64,000 nucleotides of DNA from Yuukianura sp. NJ FZ-2021 (taxonomy: Eukaryota): assembly GCA_046563655.1 (NCBI GenBank), contig CM102290.1:12276001-12340000 (forward strand), read 5' to 3'. Positions within the stretch are counted from its first letter, which is position 1, and the number at the start of each line of letters is the position of its first letter. Under the pieces are notes generated by a model. It ran no database searches, had not been told where the DNA came from, and saw only the letters and a program-made list of their open reading frames with translations. The position numbers were made by a program, and so were the translations under genes. This document shows positions 26,737-46,800 of this stretch, piece by piece.

Positions 26737-29700
26737 ATGCAGCTACACAACTTGTCACTATGTGTTCTTGTTCTGACTGTTTGGCTCGTGACATACTCAG
26801 GTAAACTGTTGACATGATTCTGATAAATTCTGAAAATTTTTGAGATTTTGAAAAATTTTTTGAAATTTGATTTCGTTTAATTTTGAAAACAAATTGGTTT
26901 CAGGAAGCTTGGAAGTAATTCTTGCGAGGTGTTGCAATTTGGGTGTACGATGGGCGTGGGACAATAATACTTGCAGCCGATTCCCAAGTCCAGTGCACAA
27001 TGTGGCCAACGAGCAGCAAGGACCGTGTCTTTCTACGATTGAGGCTTGTTGCCAACGAAATTTCAGGTTAGGCTACTATTGTGTCATGTTAAGCAAAGGT
27101 TTTCACTTTCTAACTCAGCGAGGTCAAAGGTCAAGTCATTTCAAATTGTCATTTTGTTTGAATCTTATAGGGAGCGGCAATGTACCAAGGGCCATGACAC
27201 GGCCAAATCAGGCGGGGAATGTACTGAAGGGAGTGGAGTTGGTGGATCCTATCACAAGGTGAGGAGTTGTAACTATAAGCGGGAATTTTTGTTTAAATTA
27301 GTGCAAAACATTGTATTGTCGTTTTTTCGTGTTGCTATTTTAGGATTGTTGCGAGGGATGTAAGCTTGGCTTAATTGCCGGATCGATGGGCCTTCAATGT
27401 GAATTTGCTTCACTAAAAGTTGCTCTGGGGCCACCGTGGGATTCTTCTTTGACGAAATGCTGCCTACAAGCTGGCGGCATACCAACGTCGCCACAAAGAA
27501 CCACTACGGTTGCGTCATTTACTTCTGCATTAGCTGCATTAACTTCATTAACTCAACCTTCGACGACACGTAAAACATTTCATCGGCTTTTCTGCCGAAG
27601 TGTATTGTTGCTTAGCAGCGATTCAGGAATTGCGTGTAACTTTTGGTTTTTTGAAAATTGAAGGTCCTATTGCTGGAACAACAAGCTTAGCAACGTCAAC
27701 GCCAAACGATATTTGTGCCCTCTTTCCCGGACAACTGTGTTCTCATATATGTATTCCTGATGGAAACACGTTCAAATGCGCATGTCAGCCTGGATATCGT
27801 CTTCTACCGGACGGAAAATCGTGTTTCTTGGACAACATTGCTACACAGTCGACGTAAGGAGAAATTAACCAAAATGAAATTATGTTGATGTAAATTTTAA
27901 CAATACAATTTGAAAGCAGTACGGAGAGTTCAACTCAAAGTGGGAGAGACAAACAATGTCCAATTGGATTCGCGTATAACGCGCAGACGCAGATATGTGA
28001 CGGTACGTTTTCGGTTTGCTTTTTGGTTGACTAATTTATAAATTACGATGTCCATGATTTTCCTGCTTTGTTCCACAGATATCAACGAGTGTGAAATGAA
28101 TGCCTGCAGAAAGTTTCCATACAAAACTTGCGTAAACACAATTGGTTCATTTCTGTGCGAACAGGCAGAGCGAGAAAACGAGCCGAGTCACCAGTGTCCT
28201 CCTGGATATCGCCACAATGACGAAGCTGCAACCTGTGTTGGTAATTTTTGAAACCATTTTGATATCAATTTTAAAAAGTGCGAGAGTTTTAAAATTTACC
28301 TTATTCCTAAGATATCAACGAATGCGAAGAGGGAGTCCATATTTGCGATTCGACGCAGTACTGCATCAACACTCCCGGTGGATTCGACTGTCAGAGCAAA
28401 AAGGAGTTCAGTCGCTACAACTGTCCCGCTGGATACAAGTTTAACAACAATACGCTCAACTGTGAAGGTAAGTGACCTCTGCCTTGCTGGATTACAATCT
28501 AACTCGTCTAGCTACGTCTTCCATGCTCTCAGCAATGCTAATGTGTGTTGATTTTTTTTTTGCCATTACAGACGTAGACGAATGTCAGGAGTCTCTGTCA
28601 TCTTGCAGCGATTATGAAGTTTGTCGAAATACTGCTGGAGCATACGACTGCGACATTCGGTGTCGGGATGGTTTCCGTTTCGACATTCGTCTGCGGTCGT
28701 GCCAGGACGAAGATGAATGTCTGCTGGGCACACATGACTGTATGGTTTCCCAGGAGACTTGCGTCAATGTTCCAGGAAGCTACCAATGTCACCAGATCCA
28801 ACCGTCAGAGAATAATTGTCCGCCGGGCTACGAGCCTAACCAGAACTACACTTTTCTATGTCAAGGTCAATTGGAAACAACATTACTTGAAAGATGAACT
28901 ATGAAAGATGTTCAATGCTGTAATGAATCTGTTGCTTCTTACAGATGTAGACGAGTGTAAAGCATCCTACCTGCATACATGTACGGCGTCGGAGACTTGT
29001 ATCAACGAACTCGGAGGATACCGATGTGATCCGCCTGTTGTAGATGCAGACTCGTCCACTACTGAAACCGACGTAGACATCACGGACAATACTATTCCCG
29101 GAAGCAGCGGTAAGAATTGCATCAGTGATGCCATTTTCTACTTATCAAAATGTTGAAATGATCGAATTTGAAATGTTGAATAAGATTTTTGAATTTTGTG
29201 TTCACTAGGACGGATAGAACTAGTAACACAAGTACCAACAGAGCATTCCGGGTACAAGTTTCCTTCAACTGACCCGCCGCGACGGCACAATGAACCGCAA
29301 GTGACGTCATGCAAACTGGGCTTTAGAATGCGTCTAGCAACCGTCGGACAGGAACCGGGTTGTGAAGGTAGCCAAGCACATTATTTTCAAAATTGCAATT
29401 TCAAAGTGTTAATCATTGAATTGGCAAAAATGGTGCAGATATCGACGAATGCAAGGAAGGAACAGCATGTGACAGTACTCAACTCTGCCAGAACACCATT
29501 GGAAGCTTCTATTGCCACTGCAGAAGTGGATATTACCGGGACCCTGTCACCAAAACATGTCAAGGTCAGAAATCAACATTTAGAATTTCTTAGAAACAAT
29601 TTTTTTTTCGAAGCGATGAAATTCTTTTTTGTCCTATCTAGACGTCAACGAGTGTCAAACTGGGCAACACACTTGTACATCCAGTCAGCGATGTGACAAT

Positions 29701-31944
29701 TCTCCAGGCTCCTACAGTTGTATCAGAATCACAGGCTGTGGCACTGGATACACTCTGAATACTGGAACTGGACAATGTGAAGGTATTAACTCACAAGGAT
29801 CCACAAAATTTTGACTTTTATAATAAAATTTTGATTTCGATTTGAGTAGATGACGACGAGTGTCTATTTGGGAACCACAATTGTCATGCGCTAGGACCAG
29901 AGTGGGAGTGTAAAAATACGCTTGGGTCGTTCCGATGTGACAAAGCTTTGAAGTCGTGCCCCATTGGCCTTAGTTTGGCTCCTACTGGAGACTGTCGCCC
30001 AACGTGCAATCCAGGATTCCAGTTCAACTCTCGAGGAGAATGCATTGGTAATTTAAGTTACTAAAATAACTATGGAGATATTCCGTGGATTTTTGCATTT
30101 TTAAATTTTAGACATTGACGAATGTCGCCAAGTGCCTGGAGTTCGAAGTATATGTCAAAGACATCAGCGTTGTGTGAATACTGAGGGAGCGTATCGCTGT
30201 ATGTCTGAAATCATTTGTCCTTCGGGTTACGAAGCCGATGGAACTGGAACTCGCTGTGTTGGTAATCGTTAATTTCTATGCAAAATCAAATTCTTCAGTT
30301 TGTGAATAATATTTTTGTTGTTTCAGATGTAGATGAATGTACAGTCGGTGGACACGACTGCCGAAGTAACCAAGAATGTATCAATCGTCCTGGTGGCTAC
30401 GTCTGCAAATGTCCTGCAGGATACACCATTTCAGAAAGTATGGAATGCGAAGACATTGATGAGTGCAGTCGCTATGCTGGACATGTGAGTCAACTCGTAT
30501 ACTTCCTACAGGCTTTCAAAAACTTCCAAAACTAGAAAAGTTTGGTACAAAAATTTAATTCTTTTATGGAATTGATATTTTCCAACTTCTTTTTTGTCAG
30601 GTTTGCTCATCCAACTCCGATTGCTACAACACGCAAGGTTCGTTTCGGTGTATTTGCAAAACTGGATTTGAACAAGGTTCAGACGACCAAACTTGCAAAG
30701 GTGAACGAATTTATATGAATGATAGTGGATTAAATTTATGCTAAACTATTTATATTTGTGTTTTTATATTATTTTATATTTGTTGATTCTTTTAATTTTT
30801 GATGTAGACGTGGATGAGTGTGCGAATTTGCACAGAATCTGTGATCAAAACTGTCTCAATACTTGGGGCTCATACCGTTGTACCTGCACTACAGGATTTA
30901 CACTTGGCGCTGACGGACGGTGAGGTCAGAGGCCAATGACCTCATATTTTTTAACCACTGCGATTCTAATTTATCAAGTTCTGCACTTAATCTGTAACCT
31001 TTGTCCAGAACCTGTCAAGACGTAGACGAATGTAGACTAAGTCAAGGCGAGTTTTTGTGTGCCGGACGATGCATTAACACGCATGGGTCATACAGATGCT
31101 CATGTCCCGACGGCTATCAGCTCAGAAGTGACAACCGGAGTTGTCAAGGTTGGCAAATATTTCTGTACACATTGGACAATTTACGAGTTTATTAAATTTC
31201 TGCTTCTTGTTTTCTAGACATTGACGAGTGTGAACGTAGACCGTGTCGGTCGGACGAATCGTGTTTGAACATTCGCGGCGGATTTCGCTGCAACCGATTG
31301 ATATGTCCTGCGGGTTACGAAAGGGAGGGGTCAGATGAGTAAGTTCTGTGACATTTCTAAGAAATTGTGTCAACGTTGTAGTTAGTTTGTTTAAATTTTA
31401 AAATTTTCAATTAAAATTTAAAAAATTCTTATAGCCGTTGCAAGAAAACTATTCACTGTGCCGAAGGTGACACGGAATGCTTGAAACAACCGCTCACAGT
31501 TTCCAAAAATTACCTCAGCTTCACGTCCAATGTTCGTCTGGGGTCACTTGGTTACATTGACATGTTCACAATGAAGGGTCCTAGTTGGCCTGGAGCAGTA
31601 ATGCACTTCACTCTGGAAATGAAAGAAGCCAGGGCTGCTGCTGGGATCGCTGCAGTAACACGAGACCATTTTCTTCTCAGGCGACCATCTCCGCATCAGT
31701 CGATCATTTCCCTCATCAAAACAATTCCAGGCCCACAGGTTAGAAAAACATAAAAAATAAGCTTGTCTTGTATAAAATTGAGTTATTTTTTGGAAAAGTA
31801 TTTTTAAAAAATTTTTTTCTTAAATTTTTTTTAATGTTCCAGGATGTGGAATTGGAACTATTGATGGAAGTGTACCACAGAGGGGCTTATGCCGGATCAG
31901 CCCTTGCTCAAGTCGTGATTGTCGTTACAGCTCACGAGTTCTAA
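26737..31944 (+). CDS. FBLN1: Fibulin (fibulin-1/2-like) extracellular matrix protein
   Basis: Signal-peptide exon [21 protein letters not shown]. Anaphylatoxin-type CC modules, a long run of Ca-binding EGF repeats (DINEC/DVDEC), and a C-terminal fibulin globular domain ending [10 protein letters not shown]. Confidence 0.9.
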
Positions 31945-32589
31945 TTGTGACGCTGACACATTTCAACTATAACCACATGATCTGTATAAAAATTAAGTAA
32001 CTTACAAGTTGTTACAAACTATGTTAACGGTTCCCCCTGCTCCCTCACTATGTCCATCTTCCCTTGTCATCAATTGCTTTGAAATCCCACATCTCATTTT
32101 GTTGATTAAATCCTGCGGTTGACTTTTGCTGTTGATTTGTTGAGACGCTTTTGTTCCAACTTTGAGTGTTACAGCGATCGAGTCCAGTCCAAGGTCAACT
32201 GGATGCAGGGAAAGGTCAGTAGGATCTTATATGCTCCAGTTCCTTGTTCAATCACTTTGTAACGGAAACTGCGGTCTGGAAGCGGTAGACAATAATTTAG
32301 TCCCACGCTAAACTCTTACTTCCACTAAACTGTAATTTGTCACTTCAAACTTAAATCATAAGTGAGATATTGAAAATGGAGTCAAACTTATTGTCAGTTA
32401 AAGCATTTAGGTAATTGAAAATCAAAACAACAGCATTGTAAGTGACGTTTTTCGAAATGTCCAACTTTGTTTCAACGCGTGTGATTCCTTTAGTGGACAT
32501 TGTAAGTATCGTGACTTGAAATTTTGAGAGGAAATAAGAAATATAGTAATAAAAAATTCGGATTTTAGATTTTTTTTTGTTGAAAGCAG

Positions 32590-33488
32590 ATTTTGGCCCT
32601 TGCAGTGATGACTGTTTGTTGCTGGACGCTTACGGAGACATTCCAAAATGAAGAAGATGGATACTATGTTGACTCGAGAAACCAGTCTTCACGATTCAGC
32701 GTTGTGCCTAGTACGCTGATTCTTGTTGACAACGCTGCGACGACGCAGTCAACCGAATTCGTGTCAGTTACAATGTCTACTTTAGATGACAATTTGGCAC
32801 CGACCAATTCACAGCGCATGACACGACGCTACATGCTCATAATTCAGGCGTCACTGGCCGTTTGTGTCTTAGCAACGCTTTTCCAAATTGTCATCTCCAT
32901 TTATCTACTCTGCGCTGACGCAAAGGTTGGTCACAAAACTTAAAATTTTCAAAAGACAATTTTTTTTCGTGAATGCAAAACTTAAAAAATTGGTGAAAGA
33001 TAAATGAAAAGAAAAGATTTTCTTGAAATTTTGAACTTTTGTTTCTTCATTTTTTAAGGTGTTACGTTTCTAAGCAATTTTCTTGAAAAGTGTTCAAAAT
33101 ATTATATTATTTGAATTGTGTTTTTCAATTTCAGAAACGGCGGGAACGACTGCGCATGTGGCAACTGTCCCACTTGATCATATTGGTGGTGCTGACGATG
33201 TGCTTTTTGGTGCCACTGTCGTACAACCAGGACAAGGACGCTTTTCGTGGAGTGGGTTCCTTTGGAAACTACATTAGGAAGCAAGTGAGTCACTTGTACA
33301 ACGACATTGTGTCTGCTGATACTGCGCAGGACAGTGACTACCTCCAGTCACTTTTCACTAACTCAAATAATTTACTTTACTTTGTCATTCCGTTCTCTGT
33401 CTTTTTCATTTTACTTTTACTTTTTAACTCTTGCTGTGTCAGTTGCGGATGTTGTAGCAAACCTCGATACCATCATCACAACGTCTAA
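32590..33488 (+). CDS. Small multi-pass membrane protein of unknown family; 5' exon unresolved
   Basis: Two in-phase exons (32590-32925 and 33135-33488) with 3-4 hydrophobic helices, a Ser/Thr-rich loop and a Cys-rich C-tail (NSCCVSCGCC). Confidence 0.6.
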
Positions 33489-34045
33489 AAAAAAATTGTG
33501 TCGAAGAATTGCAAATAAAAAAATTGCAAGTTTTTTGCAACTTACAAAGCACTTTATATGCAAGTACAAAGTTTGATATATAAGTTGCAAAGTTGCAACG
33601 AAACTAATCTGGCATGTCCTCATTCCTAAAGTTAGGTTTAGCTGCAAAAGCAGAAAATGCTATCAGAGAGTGACGCTTTGCGGAAACAACTTTTTCAAAA
33701 ATTCTATTTTAGAACATCAGTTCGGAACAAAAGTTATTGAAAGTGTTTCAGTGTCGTGTTCATAGGAAATTAGAAAAGTAGTGAAACCATGCGGCTGAAA
33801 AGTTTTCCTTGCTCCAAATTCTTGACTTTTTAGTAACTTTTTATTTAACTTGTGCCGTTGTGCCTCAAAGCTAGCGTAGTAGCGTCTGCTTCTTCATGTG
33901 TTTCAAAATTGTTTGCCAACATGAAATAATCTTCGAACCGTAACACTTAAGGCGTGGATTTCAGTTGTGGTTAAGACCTATGTGTCCATAACCCTAACAT
34001 TATCTGTGGTGCAGCATAGGGTACAGTAACAAAAAATCAGAAATA

Positions 34046-34267
34046 CCGCATTTCCTTGCATATAATGCGCAATGCCGTATAACGCTCAATCTCAAATTGT
34101 CTCTTTGGTACATAACCCGGTTAGAGTAGAGTTTAATACACATTTCCAAAGCAATTGTTGCATATGATTAACGAAATTCTGTAATTTTCAGGAGAAATAA
34201 TTGTGGTGCTTCAGAAATTTTCCGAAATTTCATGTATAACGCGCGCACTATATGCAAGGAAATACGG
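34046..34267. mobile_element. Tc1/mariner-pogo-type MITE
   Basis: 25-bp TIRs CCGCATTTCCTTGCATATAATGCGC / GCGCACTATATGCAAGGAAATACGG (23/25 match). Flanked by TA on the left and TG (decayed TA) on the right. Confidence 0.8.
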
Positions 34268-34875
34268 TGTTCATTGTTTAATATCATGAAGGGAGGGTGA
34301 AGTTTAAGGGCTCAACGGAAAACATTATGGTCCCTTGGAATATGTTAGGTTTAGGTTAGGGTGAATGAAAGTGTTTTGAACAACGGATGATGTTAGGCTG
34401 CAAAAAGTGTTTCAGTATCGAAGTGGACTCTGAGAAAGTGCTATGACCTCTCGAATGTTACGACGTACACGAACAGCAGAAGTTTCTTTGTTCTGGATGC
34501 AAGAGGTACGTGACGATGACTCAATCCATAAAGAAACGAAGGTCAAATCACTTTCATCACACTTCCTTTGTGTTTGTATTCAATTTTAGAACGTCGAGTA
34601 AATAATTAAGGAGTCCATGGAGGAATCGATAGTCCAAAGGAATCAATAGTAGACTCGTCGGGTGACATTGACATTGACACTGGCTCCTGACAGGCCTGTG
34701 GCAATAATGACAACATGAAGACGCTCGAAGCTCCAGGAGTTACAGAAAAACTAAGGAACGCTTTTGATTTGTTTCTGGACGACAACACGACCAATCCACA
34801 ACATTTGCGTTAATTGAATTAGTGATTGACCAAAAACGAAAGTAATTAATTGCTCGAGTACTTAAATTCAATGCG

Positions 34876-36615
34876 ATGACCCCGACAAAGCCTGTGACCA
34901 CGGTCGGGATGGCCATTCGAAGGTAACCAAAAACAAATTTGCAAAAAAAAAATAATAATAATAATAATAATTTTTAGTTTACGCTATGAATTTTTCGGGA
35001 AGAAATTAGCTCTCTATCGCTTTCCGTTCTGGAGATGTAAATTTTCAAAATTATATTTTATTTGTAATTTTGACAACTTTTCTTTTGGATAGAATGTAAG
35101 CTATTTTTTTTCTGGAAAAGTCGAAAGTATTCTTCGCATTTTTTGAACTTTTTTTTTTCTGAATTTTTGAAACAAAAAGCCTAGCATTCTTTTTTTGTGA
35201 AATTGCAGAAGCGGCGCCAGATTGAGGGCCCTGAGCAAAGCGCACAGTCCACTTCACGTTCTTCTGTGGCAAACAAGGGAAACTGAGAGGGCCCTTCAGC
35301 TTGCTGCGACTGCCCAGAAAACGCTTTTTGCTGATGTCGCCACTTGGGCTTCCAATGAAAACTTGGCCATCAGCGACATTTGCTCCAACTTTGCAGAAAT
35401 CAGTGCCTTGGCGACATCAGCTCAAGCACAACTTGCTCAAGCCTACAAGTCATTTCGCAAGGACATGGCCATGGTTCTGGAAGGGGAGAAACGAGCGGAT
35501 GTGGCTCAAAGGAAATTGCAAGAAGCGGAGACCAAGCGACACAAAGCCCGTAGACTTGTAAGTGGCACTTAATCGATTGTTAATTAGTTAAATACTTCGT
35601 AATTCATCTAAGCATTGTTGGATTTCAGGTTCTTCAGTCGCAGAACAGAACGCAAGTGACCGGCATGAGTCCACAGACGTCCAGCGACTTTCCACAACTT
35701 CAGACACAATTGGCAGAGGCAGAACGACATGCCGAGAGGGCTCACTTGTCATGTAGATAATTTAAATGTCACTAATTTCAAAAATTCTGTTTTGATAAGT
35801 TCAAATATTTTGAATTCTGAAATTTTTTCTCACTTTTTTTTAGCATGTGAAGCCAAATCGGAGTCTGAAGCGACGAAACTAGTAATTCTGAGGTCAACGC
35901 TCCATAAATTGTCGCAATCCCACATTACATATGCTCATCAACTTCATACTATTTTCAGCGGTGGACAGCAATTGGCCCACCAAATTCCAGATCCGCCACC
36001 TCCAGGTTAGACTGCAAACTGTTTCATTCGATTCCGAAATTTCGTTTTTTCAAATTTTTTTTTTCAAACTTAGGAGAACACCTCAGTTGCATTCGATACA
36101 CCGGGTTTGAGTCGACCAGAAGTATCCTGAGCAGTGTCAAATCCCAAGTCCACGTTATGTCCACTAGTCCAAATTCTTCCTCTTCATTTGCATCAACTCC
36201 GCCAAGGTCATCTTCACAATTGACCCCGTCCAACCCTATTTCTTCGCCAAATTGGGCCACTCCGTCTCCATCGGCTCCAGAAAATCCATTTCTGGCTACT
36301 GACAACAATGACCTGCCACCACCCTACAACACTCCATTTAACAGGTTAGGCCAATTACTTTCCAATTTACTGAAATGGTAACAGTTTTACTAATTGTTTT
36401 GCAGGAGTGATGCCAGTCAAGGCTCAAGTTCTTCTGCTCAAAGGCACTACAGAAGTCCAAGCGTTCCTTTCACCAGTCCAACCCAAAACGTCAGCGTCAT
36501 TCCTCATCACCAAAGAGGGGATTCCGTTGGACCTGTTTTCTGTCAAGGTCAAATGTCAAGATCTTTCAACCATGGCAACAGCATTAACAATGGAAACGAT
36601 ACTGGGAGATACTGA
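34876..36615 (+). CDS. BAR-like helical protein resembling eisosome Pil1/Lsp1, with Ser/Pro-rich tail (6 exons, ~387 aa)
   Basis: Exons 34876-34922, 35209-35557, 35629-35752, 35844-36005, 36074-36344 and 36405-36615 join in phase. Long amphipathic helices including TWASNENLAISDI, YKSFRKDMAMVLEGE and RYTGFESTRSIL. The tail has NPF and PPPY motifs. Confidence 0.7.
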
Positions 36616-37225
36616 CAGTTACTCTGTGCGTGCTCGTGCTTTGCATGAGGGCATTTGACTGTATACTTTCCAACATTCGTCCAACGAAAAGTTTTTCAAA
36701 AACTAATTTTTGTACATGTACTACGATTTACGCAATTCGATTAGTATGGGGTCATCTTGTTTTAGCAAAAACATTTATAAAATGCAAACAAAAACTATGA
36801 ATACTATAACATATCAATAAAAAGTTGATTCATATTTAAACCTAACCCGTTCGATACATAATTCCCTCTTATATAGAGTGTTAATCAGTTAAATACTATA
36901 AATGTTAAATAGTTGTGTTTCTATAAAAAAAAATATATTAATGGGTATCGGTTTACTAATTTTTGTACGTTTTTTGAAAATTTTTCGGTAGTCATAAGGT
37001 GCAAAAGGACGCCACTAGTGTATAAGAGCATGAAACGCGGCAACATTGTATTCAATTGACAACGCACGTGCATGTGAAAATAATAAATCCATGTAGCCGT
37101 GTATTTGTTTTCCATTCATCTTATGTTTGTTGTGATTTGGGGTGTATTGAATTCGAAGTAATTGACATTTACAAAAGTGAAGTGACCTTTGACATCTCAC
37201 TTAACCTTGAGAAGATTCAGTTGTC

Positions 37226-40200
37226 ATGAAGAAAGCAGAAATTAGTTTCCCCAGGGGGAAAAATCCGATTCCGTTCCTGGGCTCGTCAACACCTGATTCG
37301 TCCAGCAAAGCCAAGAAATTGAAATCCAAGGCTTCTTCCGAAGGAATCACTGCTGTAAAGTTGAACAGAGTGGACGATGACCTGTTCAAAGTAAGTCATT
37401 GTGATTATCTTGTTCACCAATTAACTGTAAACTGCAGTGTTTATGATTTGGTATGTTTGCTTGTTGTAGGTATCCAAATTCAAGGGGCCGGAAGGGAAGA
37501 GCAAGAAGAAGAAGAAAAGTAGCGGTTTGACTTCTGATGAAGTTGATTTATTAGCTTCCGATACTGCTCAAGTCAAAGTGAAGAATGTGATCGACGTGTT
37601 ATCCTATGAGGTATCGAGCGATGCTTGTTTGATAAATGACTGTCCACTTAAATTGCCTTTGCTTTACTTACTACTTGTTTCAGACAATTACGGAAGGGAT
37701 GTTGAGCCTTGGCCGAATCATCAAAGTACGTGACCATGAAATTTTAGTCAGTCTACCAGGCCGGACGATGGGATCTGTACCAATTACCTCAATCTCACGT
37801 CCATATACGAAGGCCCTGGAAACACTCACTGCAGCTGGAAATTCAGAAGACGTGAGTTTACGACTTAACTTACTGCTTCGATCACATATGGTTCAACTGT
37901 AACTTGATTAAACTTTTGGTTAGCCTATCTACGGAGTTGACAGTCTGTTCCACGTAGGCCAAGTCGTATCTGTCGCTGTTGTTGGAGTCAAGAGGGAGGG
38001 ACACTCCGTTCGCGTCACGCTGTCAATGTCACCCAACGATTTACAAGCCGTTTACACTCCTGACAGTATCTGCGAATCCATGATTCTCACTGGAGCTGTC
38101 GCCAGTGTTGAAGATCACGGGTATATAATAGACATTGGAGTAGCTGGAACCACTGCGTTTCTTCCCAAAGAACAAGCCACTGGTTACATCCAACATCAAA
38201 ACCACAACAAGCCTTTAGGTAAGCTCAGAGTTAATGGAATTCCTTCTATTCAATTCTGTTGTGAAGTTACTTACAATATTGATGTTTCATACAGGTATCG
38301 GCCAACTTCTTAAATGCAAGGTACTGTCGTGCAGGTCAGCAGGGAAAAGCAAATCGGCAAAGCAGGCCCATGTGAGACTGACTCTCAGCCCGAAGGAAAT
38401 GAAGAAGACGCGATTGACTTTAGAAACTATCACCAACTATCAATTACTTCTTCCAGGAATGGAGTCAGAAGGGACTGTAATGACGGTAAGATCAGTCTAA
38501 GAACTTTGACACCGATTTGTCAATCACGCTTGAAAAAATCTTTCAGTTTTTAACCTTGATAGACTATGCAATTCCCTTAAATTTTGGAATAGTTTGTTTC
38601 CTTTTTTTTTCGTGTAAGAGTATACGTATATCATATTGCCCCAAAGACTGCATCGGTTGTCCGTCCATTGTCCGCCTCCTCCCGATTAACATTTTGCTGC
38701 AGATACTAGGATATACCATGTTAATTCCAATAAAATTAACGTTTCTACTGCTTGAATCACTAACTACTGGTTTAGGCCAGTTGTGGTGTTCTTCATTTAT
38801 ACAGTTTATGTACACTTCCTTAGCAGTTGACAGGCGTTTTGTCTTAATATGATTCACATTGCCCCAGTATTCAATTCCAGTCTACCATGTGTCTCAACAT
38901 ACCCCAATGTGAAATACTTTCACTTGAGAAGTATACAGGAAAGTTTTACTCGTTTCATCTTTGTCCGATCCTAAGCATTAACTATGTTCTAGTACTATAT
39001 GAAAGTAGACTACTTGTCCAAATGCTAATCTAACTTTCAATTCTTGTCTAATTTCCAGACGCACAAGACCGGACTGAAAGTGGATTTTCTAGACACGGTT
39101 GGTCACATTCACCTGGACCACATGGGTGACGCCTGGACACCTCCCGAATCCATTGAAATCGGATCTACCATTTTCCCTCGAGTGCTCTACACTTTGCCCA
39201 ACTCAAATAATCCAGCCTTGACCCTACAGAGTAGACTCTGTCAGAAGAAGATTGATGCTGGAATTTCACAGTCAACACTTACACTTGGCTCCAAACTCAA
39301 AGTCAAAATAGCCAGGATTGAGAAGAGGGGACTCATCATTCGATTCGAGGGTGGGGAGAGGGGGCTAGTGGCCGCAACACGCTGCTCAGACAATTCTGCC
39401 CTTACGGACGAAGACATCGCAAAAGCATTTCCTGTGGGTTCTTCCCATACCTGTTGTGTTCTGGAGTACAGTTCACTGGACAACATATACATAGCTTCAT
39501 TTCAACAGTAAGTCTACATTCATACTACTTATCACATCATGTTCCTGGAGTCATTCTGTTACTGAAAACGATTTCACGTCTGTTTTAGATCGGTGCTGAA
39601 TCAACCTGTAGTTCGGATAGATCAGCTCTCAGTGGGAGAAGTCGTATCATGTGAACTGAAGGCCTGGAAACCCAGTGGAGCCGTTGTGGCTGTAGGATTG
39701 GCCAAAGGTTTCATTCCGAAACTTCATTTTGGAGAACTTGTTCTGAAAAATCCAGCAGTCAAGTTTCCCGTAGGAAGCAAATTCAAAGGCCGGGTAGGTT
39801 GTATAGAGTCTCACTATACCCTTATTCAAGGTTCACTTTGAATGCATTATGTTTTGTGTACAGGTATGCCGGATTGACCAACTCAAGAATCAGATGATGT
39901 TAACTGCCAAGAAGAGACTGGTGAAGAGTAGTCTCCCAATTCTTTCTACTTTTGAGGAGTGTACTTACGGAACCCTTGCAGAGGGCGTCATTAGTCGAGT
40001 CACGGAATACGGACTCAATGTATATACCATTGGCGGACTTCCCGTGAGTCACTTTAGGAAAAACTGTTGTTGGTAATTAGTGTTAAACTTATGTTTAACT
40101 ACTCTCAGGCCTTCATACCCGCTTCCAAAGCGACACTGGAGGACCGCAGTCGCCTTCCACAACTCTTTTTGCCTGGACAAGTTGTTCAATTTCACGTCCT

Positions 40201-42354
40201 GAATGCCAATCAAAAGGTAGTGGAATAATACTCTCCTTTTCCGTGTCATAATTTCAAGGTTGATTTTAAAACGTTTTGATGTTTAGGAAAATCGAATTAT
40301 TCTGTCCCTGCTATTCGATGAGTCAAGAGTTCGGACAAACTCGGTATCAGACGAAGCAACAGTAGTCCAAGAGACAGAGCAGCCCAAAGCCAGTGCAAAG
40401 TCGAAGAAGACTAAATGTAAAGACGACGCAAAATCCAGGAAATCCAGCGATGAGAGTCATATCCTCAATGGAAAAAGCAGTCAATCGAAAGACAAACAGG
40501 ATGGAAAAGTAAAGAAGGCTGCCAAGAAAACGAAACGGGAGGCTGAAGCGACACCAGTAGAAGCAGAACCTCCAAAGAAGAAGACAAAGAAAGCTAAGAA
40601 GGAGAATGTCACTGAAGTGAAGATTGAAAATATGGAACTGGAGGAAACAAAGTGTCTGGAGTGTCCAACGGATACTTTCTACGATACTTCATACCTAGAG
40701 AATAGAAAAGCAGACACAGATAGTGATCTAAGTGATGATGAAGATGAACCTGCACCGAAAGACAAGAAGAGAAAGAAGGACAAGAAGCAAGTGACTGCGG
40801 TAGCACCAACAGCTGATTTGGGTGAAGAAGAAGTGTCCAAGAGCAGAAGTTCGGAGCAGTTTGCAGCGAATTCGGTGACTGAGTATGAAAAGTTGCTTCT
40901 GGCTTCTCCGAATAATGGGAAACTGTGGTGCAGTTATATCAACTTTGTCCTTCAGGTACCTTCATTTCACACGAAAGTTTTCATTTCAGTCAGTACTGTC
41001 ATTTCTTTTCCGTTTTTCAGAGAATTCCGTTAATTTAATGTAATGGAACGGTCTTCGCTTTGTTTCCTGAATTTGTTTCACATTGCCCCAGAATAGAGAA
41101 AAACCCGAAGTGCCCTACTGTATTAATAGCCTGCTGGTACTATACTTCGCTTTTTGTTGTTTCTTTTTCAGGGTGCTGACATCGAAGACGCTCGTGCCGT
41201 CGCTGCTCGTGGTATTCGCACAATCCTGTTTCGAGAGGAAGGTGACAAGTTGCTGGTCTGGAAGGCTTGGCTCAACATTGAAGCAACATATGGAACTGAG
41301 GTAATGTGAATGACGATATGGACTGTCACGAGAGTGCACGATTTCATAGTTTTGTTCATTTTTCTTATTCTATTCAAAGGAATCACTCAAAAAAGTTTTC
41401 GAGGAAGCGCTGAAGGCTAATGACCCATTGTCCACGTACCAAGCCATGGCTGAAATTCATGGACGCAAAGGAAATGTGAAAGTAAGACACCACGTACAAA
41501 GTGTATTGATTTTTCACCGTGGAGAGATTCTAATGCTTTGATTGAAACAGGAACAGGAGAACATAGTGTATCTGATGACGAAAAAATTTTCTGAAACGAA
41601 GGAGGTTTGGTATGAAGCGGTGACGTTTTACTACAAGAATGGAGACGTGGACAAAGGCAGAACAGTCTTCAAAACTGCTCTTGAAAAATTACCAAAGACT
41701 GAGCGTAAGATACTTCCTTGTTATAGGTTATCGCAATATTTTGAAATTAGTTACGATTTTAAGATTGTTTGTTCTATTGAACACCCGTTTTCTACATTTA
41801 TAGCGCTTGAAAGTAGTAACTTTCGTGCCTACATTTACTCAAACGTTTGTTTTGTTTGTCTCATTTTGCCCCAGATATTAACATGATCTCTAAAACGGCT
41901 GTTTTGGAATTCAAATACGGCGACATCGGCAGAGGTCGCACACTGCTAGACACCACACTTGAGACGTATCCAAAACGATTGGATCTCTGGCTCCTCTATA
42001 CTGCTCAACTCATCAAGAAAGGAGAATACGACTTGACGAGGTGAGCAATCAAGACATAACTGACTTAGTCCAAACAGTTAATCTGGAAGGACTTCTCTCT
42101 AAGTTTAATTATGTGATGATTTTTATGCAGTGCAATTTTTAGTGTTTTGTCTGCTGTTTTTCAGGGAAGTTTTTGAAAATGCAGTGAGGGTTGCATTTGT
42201 TCCGAAACGGATGTTGTCACTTCTAAAGAAATATCTTCAGTTTGAAATTGAGCATGGAACGCCAGAGAAGCGACTGCGTGTCAAAGAAGAGGCACTCAAG
42301 TATGTCAATTCCACAATGACTCAATTCGCCGACTCCTTCCAGGATATGGACTAG
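37226..42354 (+). CDS. RRP5: rRNA biogenesis protein RRP5 / PDCD11 (S1 repeats plus C-terminal HAT/TPR repeats), about 15 exons
   Basis: N-terminal EISFPRG. S1 motif GAVASVEDHGYIIDIG. YEKLLLASPNNGKLWCSY, ARAVAARGIRTILFREE, LEFKYGDIGRGRTL and YPKRLDLW. Confidence 0.93.
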
Positions 42355-42658: not shown

Positions 42659-43857
42659 CTTATACTCTTCTTTGGCCTGCCCTATTGCCAAATTATTTTA
42701 ACTGGTAGATTTAGAAAAAGATGTGTATGAAGGGGAAACCTCTTTTAAGTTTTACACTTATTCATCTGACAATGACAATAAAATATATTATTTTCATTTT
42801 TTTTTCAGGAATGTCAGCATCCTATTGTATGCTAGAGATGGCATGAATGAGTTTTGTAAATGAGTGGACAGGTGTAGTGAGGAGATTAGTAATTAACAAT
42901 TTGTGGTGATTTATGGTCAACATGCAAGCACTGCGGTGACCCAGAGTCCACGAACAACAGCTTGTGGCAGTCGGTTGACTTGGTTTTTAGCTAAATTCCG
43001 AATTCCGAGTACTGTGTTTGAGCAGGGATTGGAAAGCGTGACAACATCGTGCTAAATTCTGAGGCTTTAAAGTTGGATTTGATTTAGCTTCAACCGTGTT
43101 TTTGCACAAAACTATTTTACACGGACTCGAGAATTGTCAAATCGCATCGTTGAGTGACATCGAAGAATTTGAAATTGGCATGTGATTTGCAATTTCCAAA
43201 TTAGATTTCACTTAAGTACACAGCGGTTATTGGAAATTTATTTTTGTGTTGGCAGTAATGTGGCAAAATTTGAAAAATTTTTAAAAGTAAATCACTAAAG
43301 CTACTTGAATGCTTAGGCTTAATTTTGTGCTGCCGTTTCTTGAAAATGCCCAATTCAAACAAGAGTTTTTGACCTCTTAACAAAATTCTTCGAAATTTCG
43401 AAAAAAAAAATGATTTTCCCCGTTTTACATTTTAAGCGATCTCCAATTATTGTGTTTTGACAAAAATATCGCCTAAGGCGTCCCCATTTTGTAATTTTTC
43501 ACCTGAGCTCGTATGAATTATAATTTTTTTTTGAAATTAATGTATTACAAAGAATTTTTCTGTTAAATATTTTTTGAAAACATTGCTTTCGTGACTGTTT
43601 GCCTTCCTTTTGTGTCAAAACCACACAAAAAGTGCAGGATGTTGTGGAAATACATACGAAGGAAGAGTGTATGTGACCAATACCGTACTGCATCTCCTGT
43701 CCAAGATCAAGATGAAGGGAACAAGTCAGTGAGAAGTGTCAGTGCCTCTCATACACGCCGTGTGTCAACATCTACATGCAAAATCAGTTGCGCCTGCGCA
43801 GTCAAGTCCTTGGGCCAATAGTACTACACAAGGATTCGACGCCGTGGTGTCCTAACC

Positions 43858-46800
43858 ATGGGTGACATGCGGTTGGAGCGATCTTTTCAAAACAATTTGC
43901 CACCATTTTACGAGTCCCCACCAGCCCCACCTTCTCAGTCCCACCAACCAAAATGTGGACAGCCTCCAGCAATTCCAAGCAAACCACTTCCACCAGTACC
44001 TCTTCCGTCAGTATCCAATTCCAATGCAGCTCCAGTTCTTCCACCAAAACACTTTGAAATTGAAGCCACCGTGGTCCAAGGACTCGCTCAAAGAGACTTT
44101 TTGGTGTCGGAATCAGCGATGTCTGGAAGCAGTGCCAGTGGAACCAGTGGAAGTGTCTCGGCTTCATCAACTTGGTCAACAGCGACTGTCGATCAACACT
44201 TTCTACATGATCAGAAAATCAAAGCGTCTGCGCTGTTGGACAGTCACGACAGGTCAGAGGTTTCAACTAACCACTACTAAGCTCTTACAAACAGACTCAA
44301 TACTGTAATGAAATGCACAATTTTCGAAATTTTCGACACGCGTGACATTAGGCTGAAAAATATGAAGTTATTTTAGATAATGTCGGTAGGTCATATTGAG
44401 CAAGGTTCCTTGACAGGGAAAAGTTAATTTTTCTTTAACAGGTTGGGTACTACGTCGCTTGTATACAAAAAAAAACAAAAAAAAATTAGTACCAATTTAG
44501 TACCAGTCCAAAAAAAAAATTGGTGCCAATTTAGTACCAGTCAAAAAAAAAAAATTGGTGCCAATTCGTCTGCAAAATTGAATCAAAAAATTAGCCATAT
44601 TGGTATGACTACGATGCCCCAAAATGGGAAGATACTTTTTTTTTTTTTTTTTTTTTTTGCAAAATCGAAAACACATTAGGTATTATCCAACCTGTTAAGG
44701 AAAATCGAAAGTCAACAAACGTTGATGTTAAGCTTATTTGATAAACCAATTTTTGCTAGTTCTTATTAGTTATGATAGTTAATGTTCTTAGGTTAAGGTT
44801 AACGTTATGGCTGTTTATGTTGAGTTGAATATTCGGGTCGAAGGTGAACGAAGTGGAAAAGTGGCAGGTAGATAATATTTATTACCTTTATGCTTCTACT
44901 ACGCATACGCACATTCGAAATTGGATATTCGCACAGGAGGAATTGGATCATACGATTTAGTTTCGATTTCTGTTTTCAAGTTTTGTTTTATTTCTTTTTT
45001 TTAAACGTGGCTACTTGCCAAATTGCTCCAAACACGTAAATTGTTGTGGGAAAATTTGTGATTTCAATAACTAATCTCTGAGCATCTCTTCTCCTCAATT
45101 AAGATTCAATTCAATTTCAGTCATCTCCTTACCAAACTCACCTTTTGATTTCAATTATTTTCCAATTCAGATCTCGTTTTCTCAAGCACTTTTCTTTCAA
45201 GTAAGGCTCAAACCTGTTTGAATTTTAACGGTACAACCAGCACACAACTCACGATCAACTGCAGTTAAACTGCAATGTGTTTAGTCTTTTCAGTTTCATT
45301 TCCACTTCCGCCATCACTTTTCAAAATCATTCAAAAGTTGCTTGGGGTTAGTGCAAATTCAGGATTGGAATTCGGAATTTCAAATTGGAATTGGGCAGAT
45401 CAAGTCCCGTTATATACGTCTGCCAGAACAGTTTCCTGCCTAACCCAATCATGACAGATTCAATTGATGCAAGTATGACCAAATTGTAATTGAAGTTGTC
45501 TGTTGACACTCCGAAGTTCTAATTGGTCTATCTTGTCCAAATGACTGTTCAATTGACGTCTAACCATCCATGACATTGGCGAACTCAACAAGTCACCAAA
45601 AACATTATCAAACATTTTTGAACCAACAACATTATTTCACAAAACGCTTCCAAGCCGGTAGCTTTTTAGTTTGTTTCTTTGCAAAATTTGCAAGATTCTT
45701 CGGAAAATTTGCAAGATTCTTTGCAAAAAAAAGTCCTTTTTTCATTGAATTTGTGTCATTCTGATGCAAAACCCTTCCAACTAACCGTGCAACTGTAAGT
45801 TTACAGTCCTATGGCCTAATTTTTTTTTACAAATACAAATAAAAATTGCTGAGAAAAAAAATTTGTTTGAATAGCTACCGTAACGGGGAGGTTAACAAAA
45901 AGCTTGTTAGGGAAAAAATCTGATGCAGTTGACTTTAAAACTAACTTTTGACAGCATCAGCACATTGCAGTAAGGAAGTATCTAATTCGGTGGAGATTTA
46001 TTACATGCGTGGATGTGTCACTTTTAAGAGTGTTACATTTCACAACTTCAAAAATCCACACATAACTGACTCCAAAAAACGTCTTACGCTACTTCCAAGA
46101 CTCAAATTTTTTGAAATTTTTAAGAATTGGGCAATTCATTTCTAGCAAAATTTTAACAAATACTTGAACTTCACATATAACACTAAACTGTTTTTACAAT
46201 TTTATGAACTTTTAAAACTTTTCCACAAAGAAGAAATTCAAAATAGTTCTTTTTTTTTTTTGAAAATTGGTTCAAAATGGACAATTTTTTCATAAAATTG
46301 AGCATGAAAAGGGAATGAGAACGGAGAATATTCAAACTGGTGCCAAGAAACTGCAAGTGCAGGGACCTTGAGGTGTGGGAAGAACAGTGACCTTTGACCT
46401 GAATTAATCCAAGTGAAGTTCCCAGCATCCCTGTAATAATCCACACCTTCTAAATCCCCACCACTTTATTAGCCCAACCTATCTGCACCATCTTGGCTAA
46501 CTCCCAAGTATTTAATTTATTAAACTATGGGAATTCAGCAGTGAATCTTTCCAAAGAGTTTTGTTGTTTCTATTATCCATTTTTTAAAGTTTTTGTCTAA
46601 ATTCGTATAATTAAAATTTCATAATTTCCATCAATCTTGGTTGCTCATCTTTTGTTTTTCGAGAGACCAAGGTTAATTTGATTTAGGTTTCATCCAATGC
46701 CAAAACTTTTCCTTTCAACTTGATTGCTTTGTTCTGATTTAGTTAGTTTCAAGTTTTGAGTTGACGTGGACAAGTCTCTTCTTCAATCAAGGCTTTAAAA

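Follow-up and report, generated by a model that had tools for sequence, protein, structure and literature searches.

Probable Pil1/Lsp1-type BAR protein gene of Yuukianura sp. NJ FZ-2021 and its family in invertebrates and Capsaspora

The 64,000-nucleotide stretch of contig CM102290.1 analysed here (Yuukianura sp. NJ FZ-2021, GenBank assembly GCA_046563655.1, positions 12,276,001 to 12,340,000 of the forward strand), in the following called the window, carries between its positions 34876 and 36615 on the plus strand a spliced gene for which an earlier note, made from the sequence alone, had proposed a likeness to the eisosome proteins Pil1 and Lsp1. In the available text of Olivera-Couto et al. 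2011 (PMC3128537) BLAST matches to these proteins are described as mostly restricted to fungi, with homologues in Dikarya only. The Pil1 domain is placed in Mucoromycota too by the available text of a 2023 survey (PMC10079182), and the corresponding text of a paper on the C. elegans 'meisosome' (PMC10010689) states that animals have no direct Pil1 or LSP-1 orthologues. Homology searches, profile comparisons, structure prediction and a phylogeny were used to place the window gene and the protein family to which it belongs.

Gene model and closest relatives

The six exons of the gene join into 1164 nucleotides (nt), i.e. 387 codons followed by a stop codon, with zero in-frame stops in the joined exons, and the five introns (286, 71, 91, 68 and 60 nt in order) all run from GT to AG. 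An intact six-exon gene was confirmed in the window, with the splicing predicted solely from canonical sites and homology; the start codon at 34876, the stop ending at 36615 and the spliced reading frame of about 387 residues lie exactly where the earlier note had put them. In a search with the exon 2 translation one longer protein was found, P0001 of the springtail Allacma fusca (362 residues, unnamed product), and a search with P0001 yielded P0002 of Orchesella dallaii and the unnamed record P0003 at 30% identity. Aligned over 311 columns, the spliced window protein and P0001 have 52% of their residues in common (E 6e-98), and the identity to P0002 is 49.5%; exons 2-5 were located independently by tblastn with P0001 and P0002. 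These matches point to a springtail as the source of the window, most likely one that is absent from the protein collection. The features of the gene are the following:

34876-34922, plus strand: exon 1, start codon and beginning of the basic N-terminal segment; ends in phase 2 at the donor GTAACC
35209-35557, plus strand: exon 2, remaining basic segment, BAR helix 1 and most of helix 2
35629-35752, plus strand: exon 3, end of helix 2, turn and start of helix 3 with the LQTQLAEAE block
35844-36005, plus strand: exon 4, helix 3 (E.EA.K block) to the invariant proline of the IPDPPPPG loop
36074-36344, plus strand: exon 5, Y-x-G motif and fourth helix (domain end at about 36156), then Ser/Pro-rich tail with NPF and PPPY
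36316-36327, plus strand: PPPY (PPxY) tail motif, residues 309-312 of the spliced protein
36405-36615, plus strand: exon 6, poorly conserved end of the tail and TGA stop; low confidence in the model of P0001
36816-36821, plus strand: AATAAA, candidate polyadenylation signal read in the sequence about 200 nt past the stop

Exon 1 is supported by a short match of the type M..KP..M.IRR to the N-terminus of P0001, in which the conserved M1 and R11 columns are aligned. The second exon holds the conserved W, N.A..D and F-R-K...LEGEK block, and tblastn aligns it to P0001 residues 12-129 at 66% identity (67% in the protein search with the exon translation); in the family profile alignments this region aligns to Lsp1 residues of about 56-150. 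Exon 3 is 58.5% identical to P0001 residues 128-168 (tblastn), with the splice sites GTAAGT...TTTCAG and GTAGAT. By the same method exon 4 matches P0001 residues 170-230, and exon 5 matches P0001 residues 224-251 as well as P0002 residues 215-313. The exon 4 columns E176, E178, K181, F207 and P218, which are conserved in 55-67 of 67 family rows, are retained in the window protein. Over all family columns conserved in at least 75% of the rows the window protein has the consensus residue at 26 of 30; the four exceptions are the conservative changes L76 to I, I101 to V and V242 to L, and the change of P285 to L.

A two-codon upstream frame, ATG CGA TGA, at 34871-34879 overlaps the proposed start at 34876. 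This overlap and the short, weakly supported exon 1 would fit a gene-model artefact or an untranscribed relic, an explanation which is held to be very improbable, since 387 codons without a stop extend across five canonical introns and both the identity to P0001 and the 26 conserved columns are retained. Intron 1 contains, at 34940-34975, a run of A and then simple sequence of the type (AAT)n, which stays below the threshold of Tandem Repeats Finder. An antisense open reading frame of 121 residues at 35051-35416, covering parts of intron 1 and exon 2, had no Pfam match and was taken as a chance frame, and an Exonuc_VII_S match in the translations of exons 2-6 was likewise dismissed as being at chance level. 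A second copy of the gene is absent from the window by tblastn with P0001 and P0002.

From the three sequences P0001, P0002 and P0003 the profile A1 was made and searched over 1.84 billion cluster representatives, which gave 380 matches at E<=1e-3 and 187 at E<=1e-10. Scanning with Pfam covered 67 longer family representatives, and two alignments were derived, A2 with 66 rows and A3 with 23 rows, the rows of A3 having no Pil1 Pfam match of their own. A further homologue search with A2 added just short fragments (9 proteins). The names of P0006, P0089 and P0057 look wrongly transferred: two of the three bear the name 'Zinc-binding alcohol dehydrogenase domain-containing protein 2' and the copepod member is named 'MyosinI heavy chain-like', with no dehydrogenase or myosin domain found in them by Pfam. 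Other family members are labelled 'uncharacterized' in their source records. In P0010 a mitochondrial L51_S25_CI-B8 domain stands ahead of the Pil1-like domain, and P0039 has a Sina RING finger inside it; both are more probably products of merged gene models than true fusions and were excluded from A2.

Relationship to Pil1 and Lsp1

At the level of profiles, the family was connected to Pil1 and Lsp1 in several ways. The Pfam model PF13805 (Pil1) was matched at E<=0.1 by 31 of the 67 representatives, and eight of these (P0006, P0011, P0018, P0028, P0057, P0062, P0089 and P0095) reached its curated cut-off of 27 bits. FAM92 (PF06730) was matched once, by P0109 with 20.9 bits, i.e. below the cut-off of 23.6 bits, and BAR_3 once and weakly. 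Neither PX nor Vps5 was matched by P0001-P0003; among the 67 representatives just a PX match with E 0.039 in P0032 and a Vps5 match with E 0.048 in P0062 were seen. When the profiles were compared with the sequences of the Protein Data Bank (PDB), A1 had Lsp1 (3plt) as its best match over the full domain, with a borderline E-value of 0.042. A2 matched Lsp1 at 9.4e-16 and 3.4e-15 and Pil1 at 5.1e-11 and 9.5e-11, followed by an unrelated coiled coil at 0.0099. Since A2 includes rows which are themselves Pil1-positive, A3 was built without such rows; it had Lsp1 in the first places (4e-5 and 5.5e-5) and Pil1 third (0.081), with the next match at 0.56.

The HMMER alignments of the family profile to Lsp1 are colinear over the full domain. 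They share the landmarks W89, D99, R126 and the Y-x-G after the proline-rich loop with S. cerevisiae Lsp1/Pil1 (PDB 3plt, 8qb7, 8qb8; PF13805). The four blocks which the earlier note had compared with yeast Pil1 were recovered in the same register, namely W...D, Y/F-R...E, LQTQLAEAE against LEQELVRAE, and P-D...PGE...Y-G. Moreover, both Lsp1/Pil1 and the animal family have a basic segment before helix 1. Differences are also evident, as the family has its LEGEK block where Lsp1/Pil1 has IRNIEA. Among the language-model look-alikes of P0001 and of a nematode member, an arthropod uncharacterised cluster came first and Pil1 clusters followed. Taken together, the Pil1/Lsp1 assignment is supported at the level of profiles and fold, and not by single sequences; the likeness exceeds chance at the profile level only.

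A bridge between the fungal and the animal proteins is provided by P0062, the hypothetical protein CAOG_01508 of Capsaspora owczarzaki (260 residues), the closest non-animal relative found. It was matched by A1 at 2.3e-33, scores 84.9 bits on the Pfam Pil1 model and finds Pil1 (1.4e-14) and Lsp1 (3.2e-13) in the PDB. Comparison of A3 with P0062 by hhalign gave a probability of 99.9% and an E-value of 3.5e-35 over 239 columns, in an alignment which takes in the N-terminal RR...GH.DLN..IS motif, and the spliced window protein is 24% identical to P0062 over 213 residues (blastp, 58 bits). Capsaspora and the animal family thus have the N-terminal motif and the whole domain in common. Unlike the animal family, the Capsaspora protein is a plain Pil1 protein by Pfam and has neither the tail nor PPxY. 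By its sequence, the Capsaspora member is intermediate between fungal Pil1 and the animal proteins.

For the analysis of the fold, an AlphaFold2 model of the orthologue P0001 was made with A2. The mean predicted local distance difference test (pLDDT) value of this model is 80.7; 220 residues have values of at least 90, and most of residues 21-250 lie above 90. Its domain begins about 20 residues from the N-terminus; helices are predicted at 22-59, 64-139, 143-214 and 235-251 and are followed by a low-confidence, disordered tail. The helical nature of the first 260 or so residues, as read by the earlier note in the window protein, was hence borne out on the orthologue. In a Foldseek search against the PDB, ranks 1-6 were all Lsp1/Pil1 (3.5e-8 to 4e-7), with SNX1 at 1.4e-4 and FAM92A in 25th place at 6.6e-3, so that the proposed comparison with the Lsp1 structure by AlphaFold and Foldseek came out in favour of Lsp1/Pil1. 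VIA-align gave for Lsp1 a Z of 18.6 and a root-mean-square deviation (rmsd) of 2.3 A over 207 of 207 chain residues, followed by Pil1 (17.2), Lsp1 (17.0), Pil1 (16.1), SNX1 (14.3), FAM92A (14.2) and arfaptin (13.6). Among the BAR chains, the fourth helix (235-251), which comes after the proline loop, was reached by the Pil1/Lsp1 alignments alone; chains from native lattices also reached the N-terminal segment, with the match extending to Pil1 residue 38. In the modelled fold, three BAR helices and a fourth helix fit Lsp1/Pil1 better than other solved BAR domains, with a sequence identity between the P0001 model and Lsp1/Pil1 of just 14-18%. The margin of 3-4 Z units is supportive rather than decisive, since the model is that of an orthologue, AlphaFold has seen Lsp1, and long helices score high in general.

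An alternative explanation is that the gene encodes a generic animal BAR protein of the FAM92/CIBAR, SNX-BAR or arfaptin kind, whose likeness to Pil1 results from long-helix architecture and composition. The Z values of SNX1, FAM92A and arfaptin would fit such a protein, as would the weak FAM92 match of P0109, the weak BAR_3 match of another representative, and the FAM92 and BAR clusters found at 0.82-0.85 among the language-model look-alikes; additionally, P0001 alone finds neither Pil1 nor Lsp1 in the PDB. The FAM92A/CIBAR1 BAR domain (PDB 9uhd, 8ceg) has a three-helix fold of similar length, with an rmsd of 2.3 A over 193 residues; it gave no sequence signal for P0001-P0003 or in the PDB profile searches and leaves the fourth helix uncovered. 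Against a generic BAR protein stand the recurrence of Pil1 in Pfam (31/67, as compared with 1/67 for FAM92), the restriction of significant PDB matches of A2 and A3 to Lsp1/Pil1, with other BAR proteins absent at E<=1, the single colinear full-domain match with its W, D, P and Y-x-G landmarks and fourth helix, and the Capsaspora link, which is significant in both directions. This explanation is regarded as largely refuted and is given a small residual probability. A clear assignment to FAM92/CIBAR or SNX-BAR, named in the earlier note as the outcome that would speak against its Pil1-type assignment, was not obtained; Pil1/Lsp1 was the top and the sole consistent signal in profile and structure searches.

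A comparison within the Pil1 family is offered by yeast Meu14/Ssp1, which the available text of PMC12470953 describes as sporulation-specific members whose fold has diverged past sequence recognition and whose jobs lie beyond plasma-membrane eisosomes. In contrast to the animal family, these are fungal proteins which work at the forespore membrane, and a PPxY tail is unmentioned in that available text (PMC12470953).

Distribution, descent and genomic context

Among 33 representatives looked up, 18 are named members, comprising 17 animals and Capsaspora:

Springtails: Allacma, Orchesella
Insects: Bacillus rossius, Rhynocoris
Copepod: Lepeophtheirus
Molluscs: Plakobranchus, Solemya, Littorina, Mactra, Mercenaria
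Nematodes: Aphelenchoides/Aphelenchus, Meloidogyne, Angiostrongylus, Steinernema, Strongyloides
Sponge: Oscarella
Hemichordate: Ptychodera
Filasterean: Capsaspora

No fungi or vertebrates, and neither Caenorhabditis nor Drosophila, are among these 18 named representatives, a small sample which proves no absence. A maximum-likelihood tree was computed from the 18 named sequences and the window protein, without fungal sequences, and was rooted on Capsaspora. In this tree the window protein groups with the springtails (100/100), the molluscs form a clade (96/98) with bivalve and gastropod pairs, and the nematodes form another (100/100); the deeper forks are unresolved. The longest branch (1.62) belongs to P0109 of Ptychodera flava, which is also the sole FAM92 match and has neither a Pil1 match nor PPxY; P0109 may belong to a different BAR family. 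The phylogeny suggested by the earlier note was thereby realised for holozoan and metazoan homologues, with the animal sequences being placed by animal group.

On the Pfam Pil1 model, which is based on fungi, Capsaspora scores 84.9 bits and the animal members at most 33.4 bits. The animal-group tree, the five introns and this score gradient fit a family that was inherited vertically and changed fast on the animal stem, and a recent fungal transfer is unsupported. Of the two origins considered in the earlier note, retention of an opisthokont or holozoan family agrees with its occurrence in Capsaspora and, among animals, in arthropods, molluscs, nematodes and a sponge; a domesticated fungal transfer, in its recent form into springtails, finds no support in tree or distribution.

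Springtails live among fungi, and this was counted in favour of a transfer, in which a fungal Pil1 gene would have entered springtails or an animal lineage horizontally and would then have been domesticated. The available texts of published surveys, which call Pil1/Lsp1 fungal (PMC3128537, PMC10010689), would point the same way. A transfer is nevertheless very unlikely, as the family is known from five molluscs and five nematodes, from two insects and two springtails, and from one sponge, one copepod and one hemichordate, and the tree recovers the groups; moreover, the score gradient is that expected from the species tree if the animal stem changed fast, five spliceosomal introns interrupt the gene, its neighbours are animal genes, and the animal PPxY tail (58/67 rows) is missing from the Capsaspora member.

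The gene sits in an ordinary animal nuclear context, with a G+C content of the window of 38%. The upstream neighbour on the plus strand (27000-29700) has calcium-binding EGF domains (EGF_CA, 63.9 bits at 28472-28897) and is of the fibulin/fibrillin type, an animal extracellular-matrix kind of gene. Downstream, at 37200-41900 on the plus strand, a gene with S1/RRP5-S1 domains, a lysine-rich acidic linker and TPR/HAT-like repeats resembles RRP5/PDCD11 (rRNA processing). A proline-rich open frame of 152 residues at 43822-44280 on the plus strand has no Pfam match and may be an exon of another gene. Rfam at its gathering thresholds had zero matches in 30000-42000, and Tandem Repeats Finder reported zero repeats in 34000-37500.

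Positions of the Pil1 lipid-binding residues, tail and proposed role

In the available text of a cryo-EM preprint on the eisosome (bioRxiv 10.1101/2023.08.25.554800), R126, K130 and R133 of Pil1 are given as residues for phosphatidylinositol 4,5-bisphosphate (PI(4,5)P2) and R43, K66 and R70 as residues for phosphatidylserine, and an N-terminal amphipathic helix with F33, Y40, F42, R43 and F50 is described as entering the membrane. The Pil1 positions K66, R70, R126, K130 and R133 were mapped onto the family via the alignment of the A2 profile with Lsp1/Pil1, and basic residues were counted over 66 rows:

K66 position: basic in 46/66 rows, R in the window protein
R70 position: basic in 14/66 rows, R in the window protein
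R126 position: basic in 42/66 rows, R in the window protein
K130 position: basic in 14/66 rows, mostly E, A in the window protein
R133 position: basic in 3/66 rows, mostly L, L in the window protein

Both phosphatidylserine positions K66 and R70 are hence R in the window protein, with the family being just partly basic there. Unlike Pil1, the animal family has E or A at K130 and L at R133. The Capsaspora protein keeps K66, R126, K130 and R133, and since the animals lack two of the three pocket residues which it keeps, the canonical phosphoinositide pocket has changed on the animal branch. The basic segment before helix 1, which is common to Capsaspora, has R11 in 52/56 rows and R12 in 48/57 rows. 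The first 30 residues of the window protein contain 6 K/R and zero D/E, and the hydrophobic moment of the N-terminal segment is just moderate at about 0.5. If the alignment of P0062 with Pil1 were extended without gaps, the second arginine would land on Pil1 R43.

The tail after the domain is rich in Ser, Pro and Asn, and PPxY is its sole conserved feature, present in 58/67 rows including the window and the sponge protein; the four columns are P, P, P and Y in 59/65, 62/64, 50/64 and 60/64 rows, respectively. The motif is missing from the Capsaspora, Ptychodera and Strongyloides members. NPF was considered as a tail motif of the family and was rejected, being present in 6/67 rows. WW domains, and in particular those of Nedd4-family ubiquitin ligases, bind PPxY motifs. 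Apart from this tail, the animal family differs from Lsp1/Pil1 in that its hosts have no cell wall. The literature assigns Pil1/Lsp1 and eisosomes to fungi and to some algae with walls. In the available text of a red-alga paper from 2026 (PMC13353863), microalgal eisosomes are described as seen only in walled cells.

Considering the evidence as a whole, the gene is held with a probability of about 80% to encode a Pil1/Lsp1-type BAR protein, as a member of an unnamed family of invertebrates and Capsaspora which most likely descended vertically from one ancestral gene shared with the fungal eisosome scaffolds. Several points weigh against this assignment. The Pfam, PDB and fold evidence rests on orthologues which are at most 52% identical to the window protein, plus its exon translations. 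The Pfam check proposed by the earlier note gave Pil1 recurrently in the family (31/67); neither the translations of exons 2-6 nor P0001-P0003 had a match to Pil1 or any BAR family at E<=10. P0001 alone, searched against PDB sequences at E<=10, gave no Pil1/Lsp1 and just AUGMIN (E 1.9) and a scaffold fusion (E 6.7). The E-values of A2 are inflated by the Capsaspora Pil1 protein and seven others at or above the Pfam cut-off, the clean A3 being much weaker at 4e-5. Other BAR folds reach Z values of 12-14, so that the fold alone discriminates weakly. Vertical descent, most likely as it is, was argued from distribution and score pattern and not from a tree rooted with fungi. The PI(4,5)P2 pocket is not kept at two of its three positions (K130 and R133) in the animal family, with all three kept in Capsaspora. 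Finally, dimerisation, membrane binding and WW-domain binding are steps that we infer.

According to the proposed mechanism, the domain would form a crescent-shaped dimer, which would bind acidic membrane via the basic N-terminal segment and the basic residues at the Pil1 K66, R70 and R126 positions and would stabilise or sense curved membrane. The PPxY tail would recruit WW-domain proteins, e.g. Nedd4-type ubiquitin ligases, to the membrane patch. As the animal proteins have lost the K130 and R133 equivalents, both the lipids they prefer and any lattice they form may be unlike those of yeast eisosomes.

An eisosome-like scaffold in animals, at which the earlier note had hinted, is put forward here as a hypothesis. 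A bolder and doubtful version is an animal eisosome, extending from sponges to arthropods, molluscs and nematodes, in which a Pil1-like lattice would shape or sense plasma-membrane furrows, perhaps under the cuticle or apical matrix, the pocket having been lost and PPxY bringing in Nedd4-type ligases. Through such a structure, membrane proteins would be turned over in dependence on membrane tension or curvature, and it would have been overlooked because single-sequence searches miss the family.

No description of an animal Pil1 family was found in the library of papers searched. As 8 of the 67 representatives reach the Pfam cut-off, automatic databases may already tag a few of them as Pil1. 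What is new is thus that the sequences were recognised and described as a family, and not that they were detected at all. A well-conserved Pil1-type family across invertebrate phyla contradicts the stated view that animals are without direct orthologues, and its conserved PPxY tail is a concrete link to ubiquitin ligases which is open to testing. If these proteins scaffold membrane, they would constitute a third furrow or curvature coat in animals beside caveolae and the classical BAR proteins, and the origin of the eisosome core would move back to at least the common ancestor of fungi and animals.

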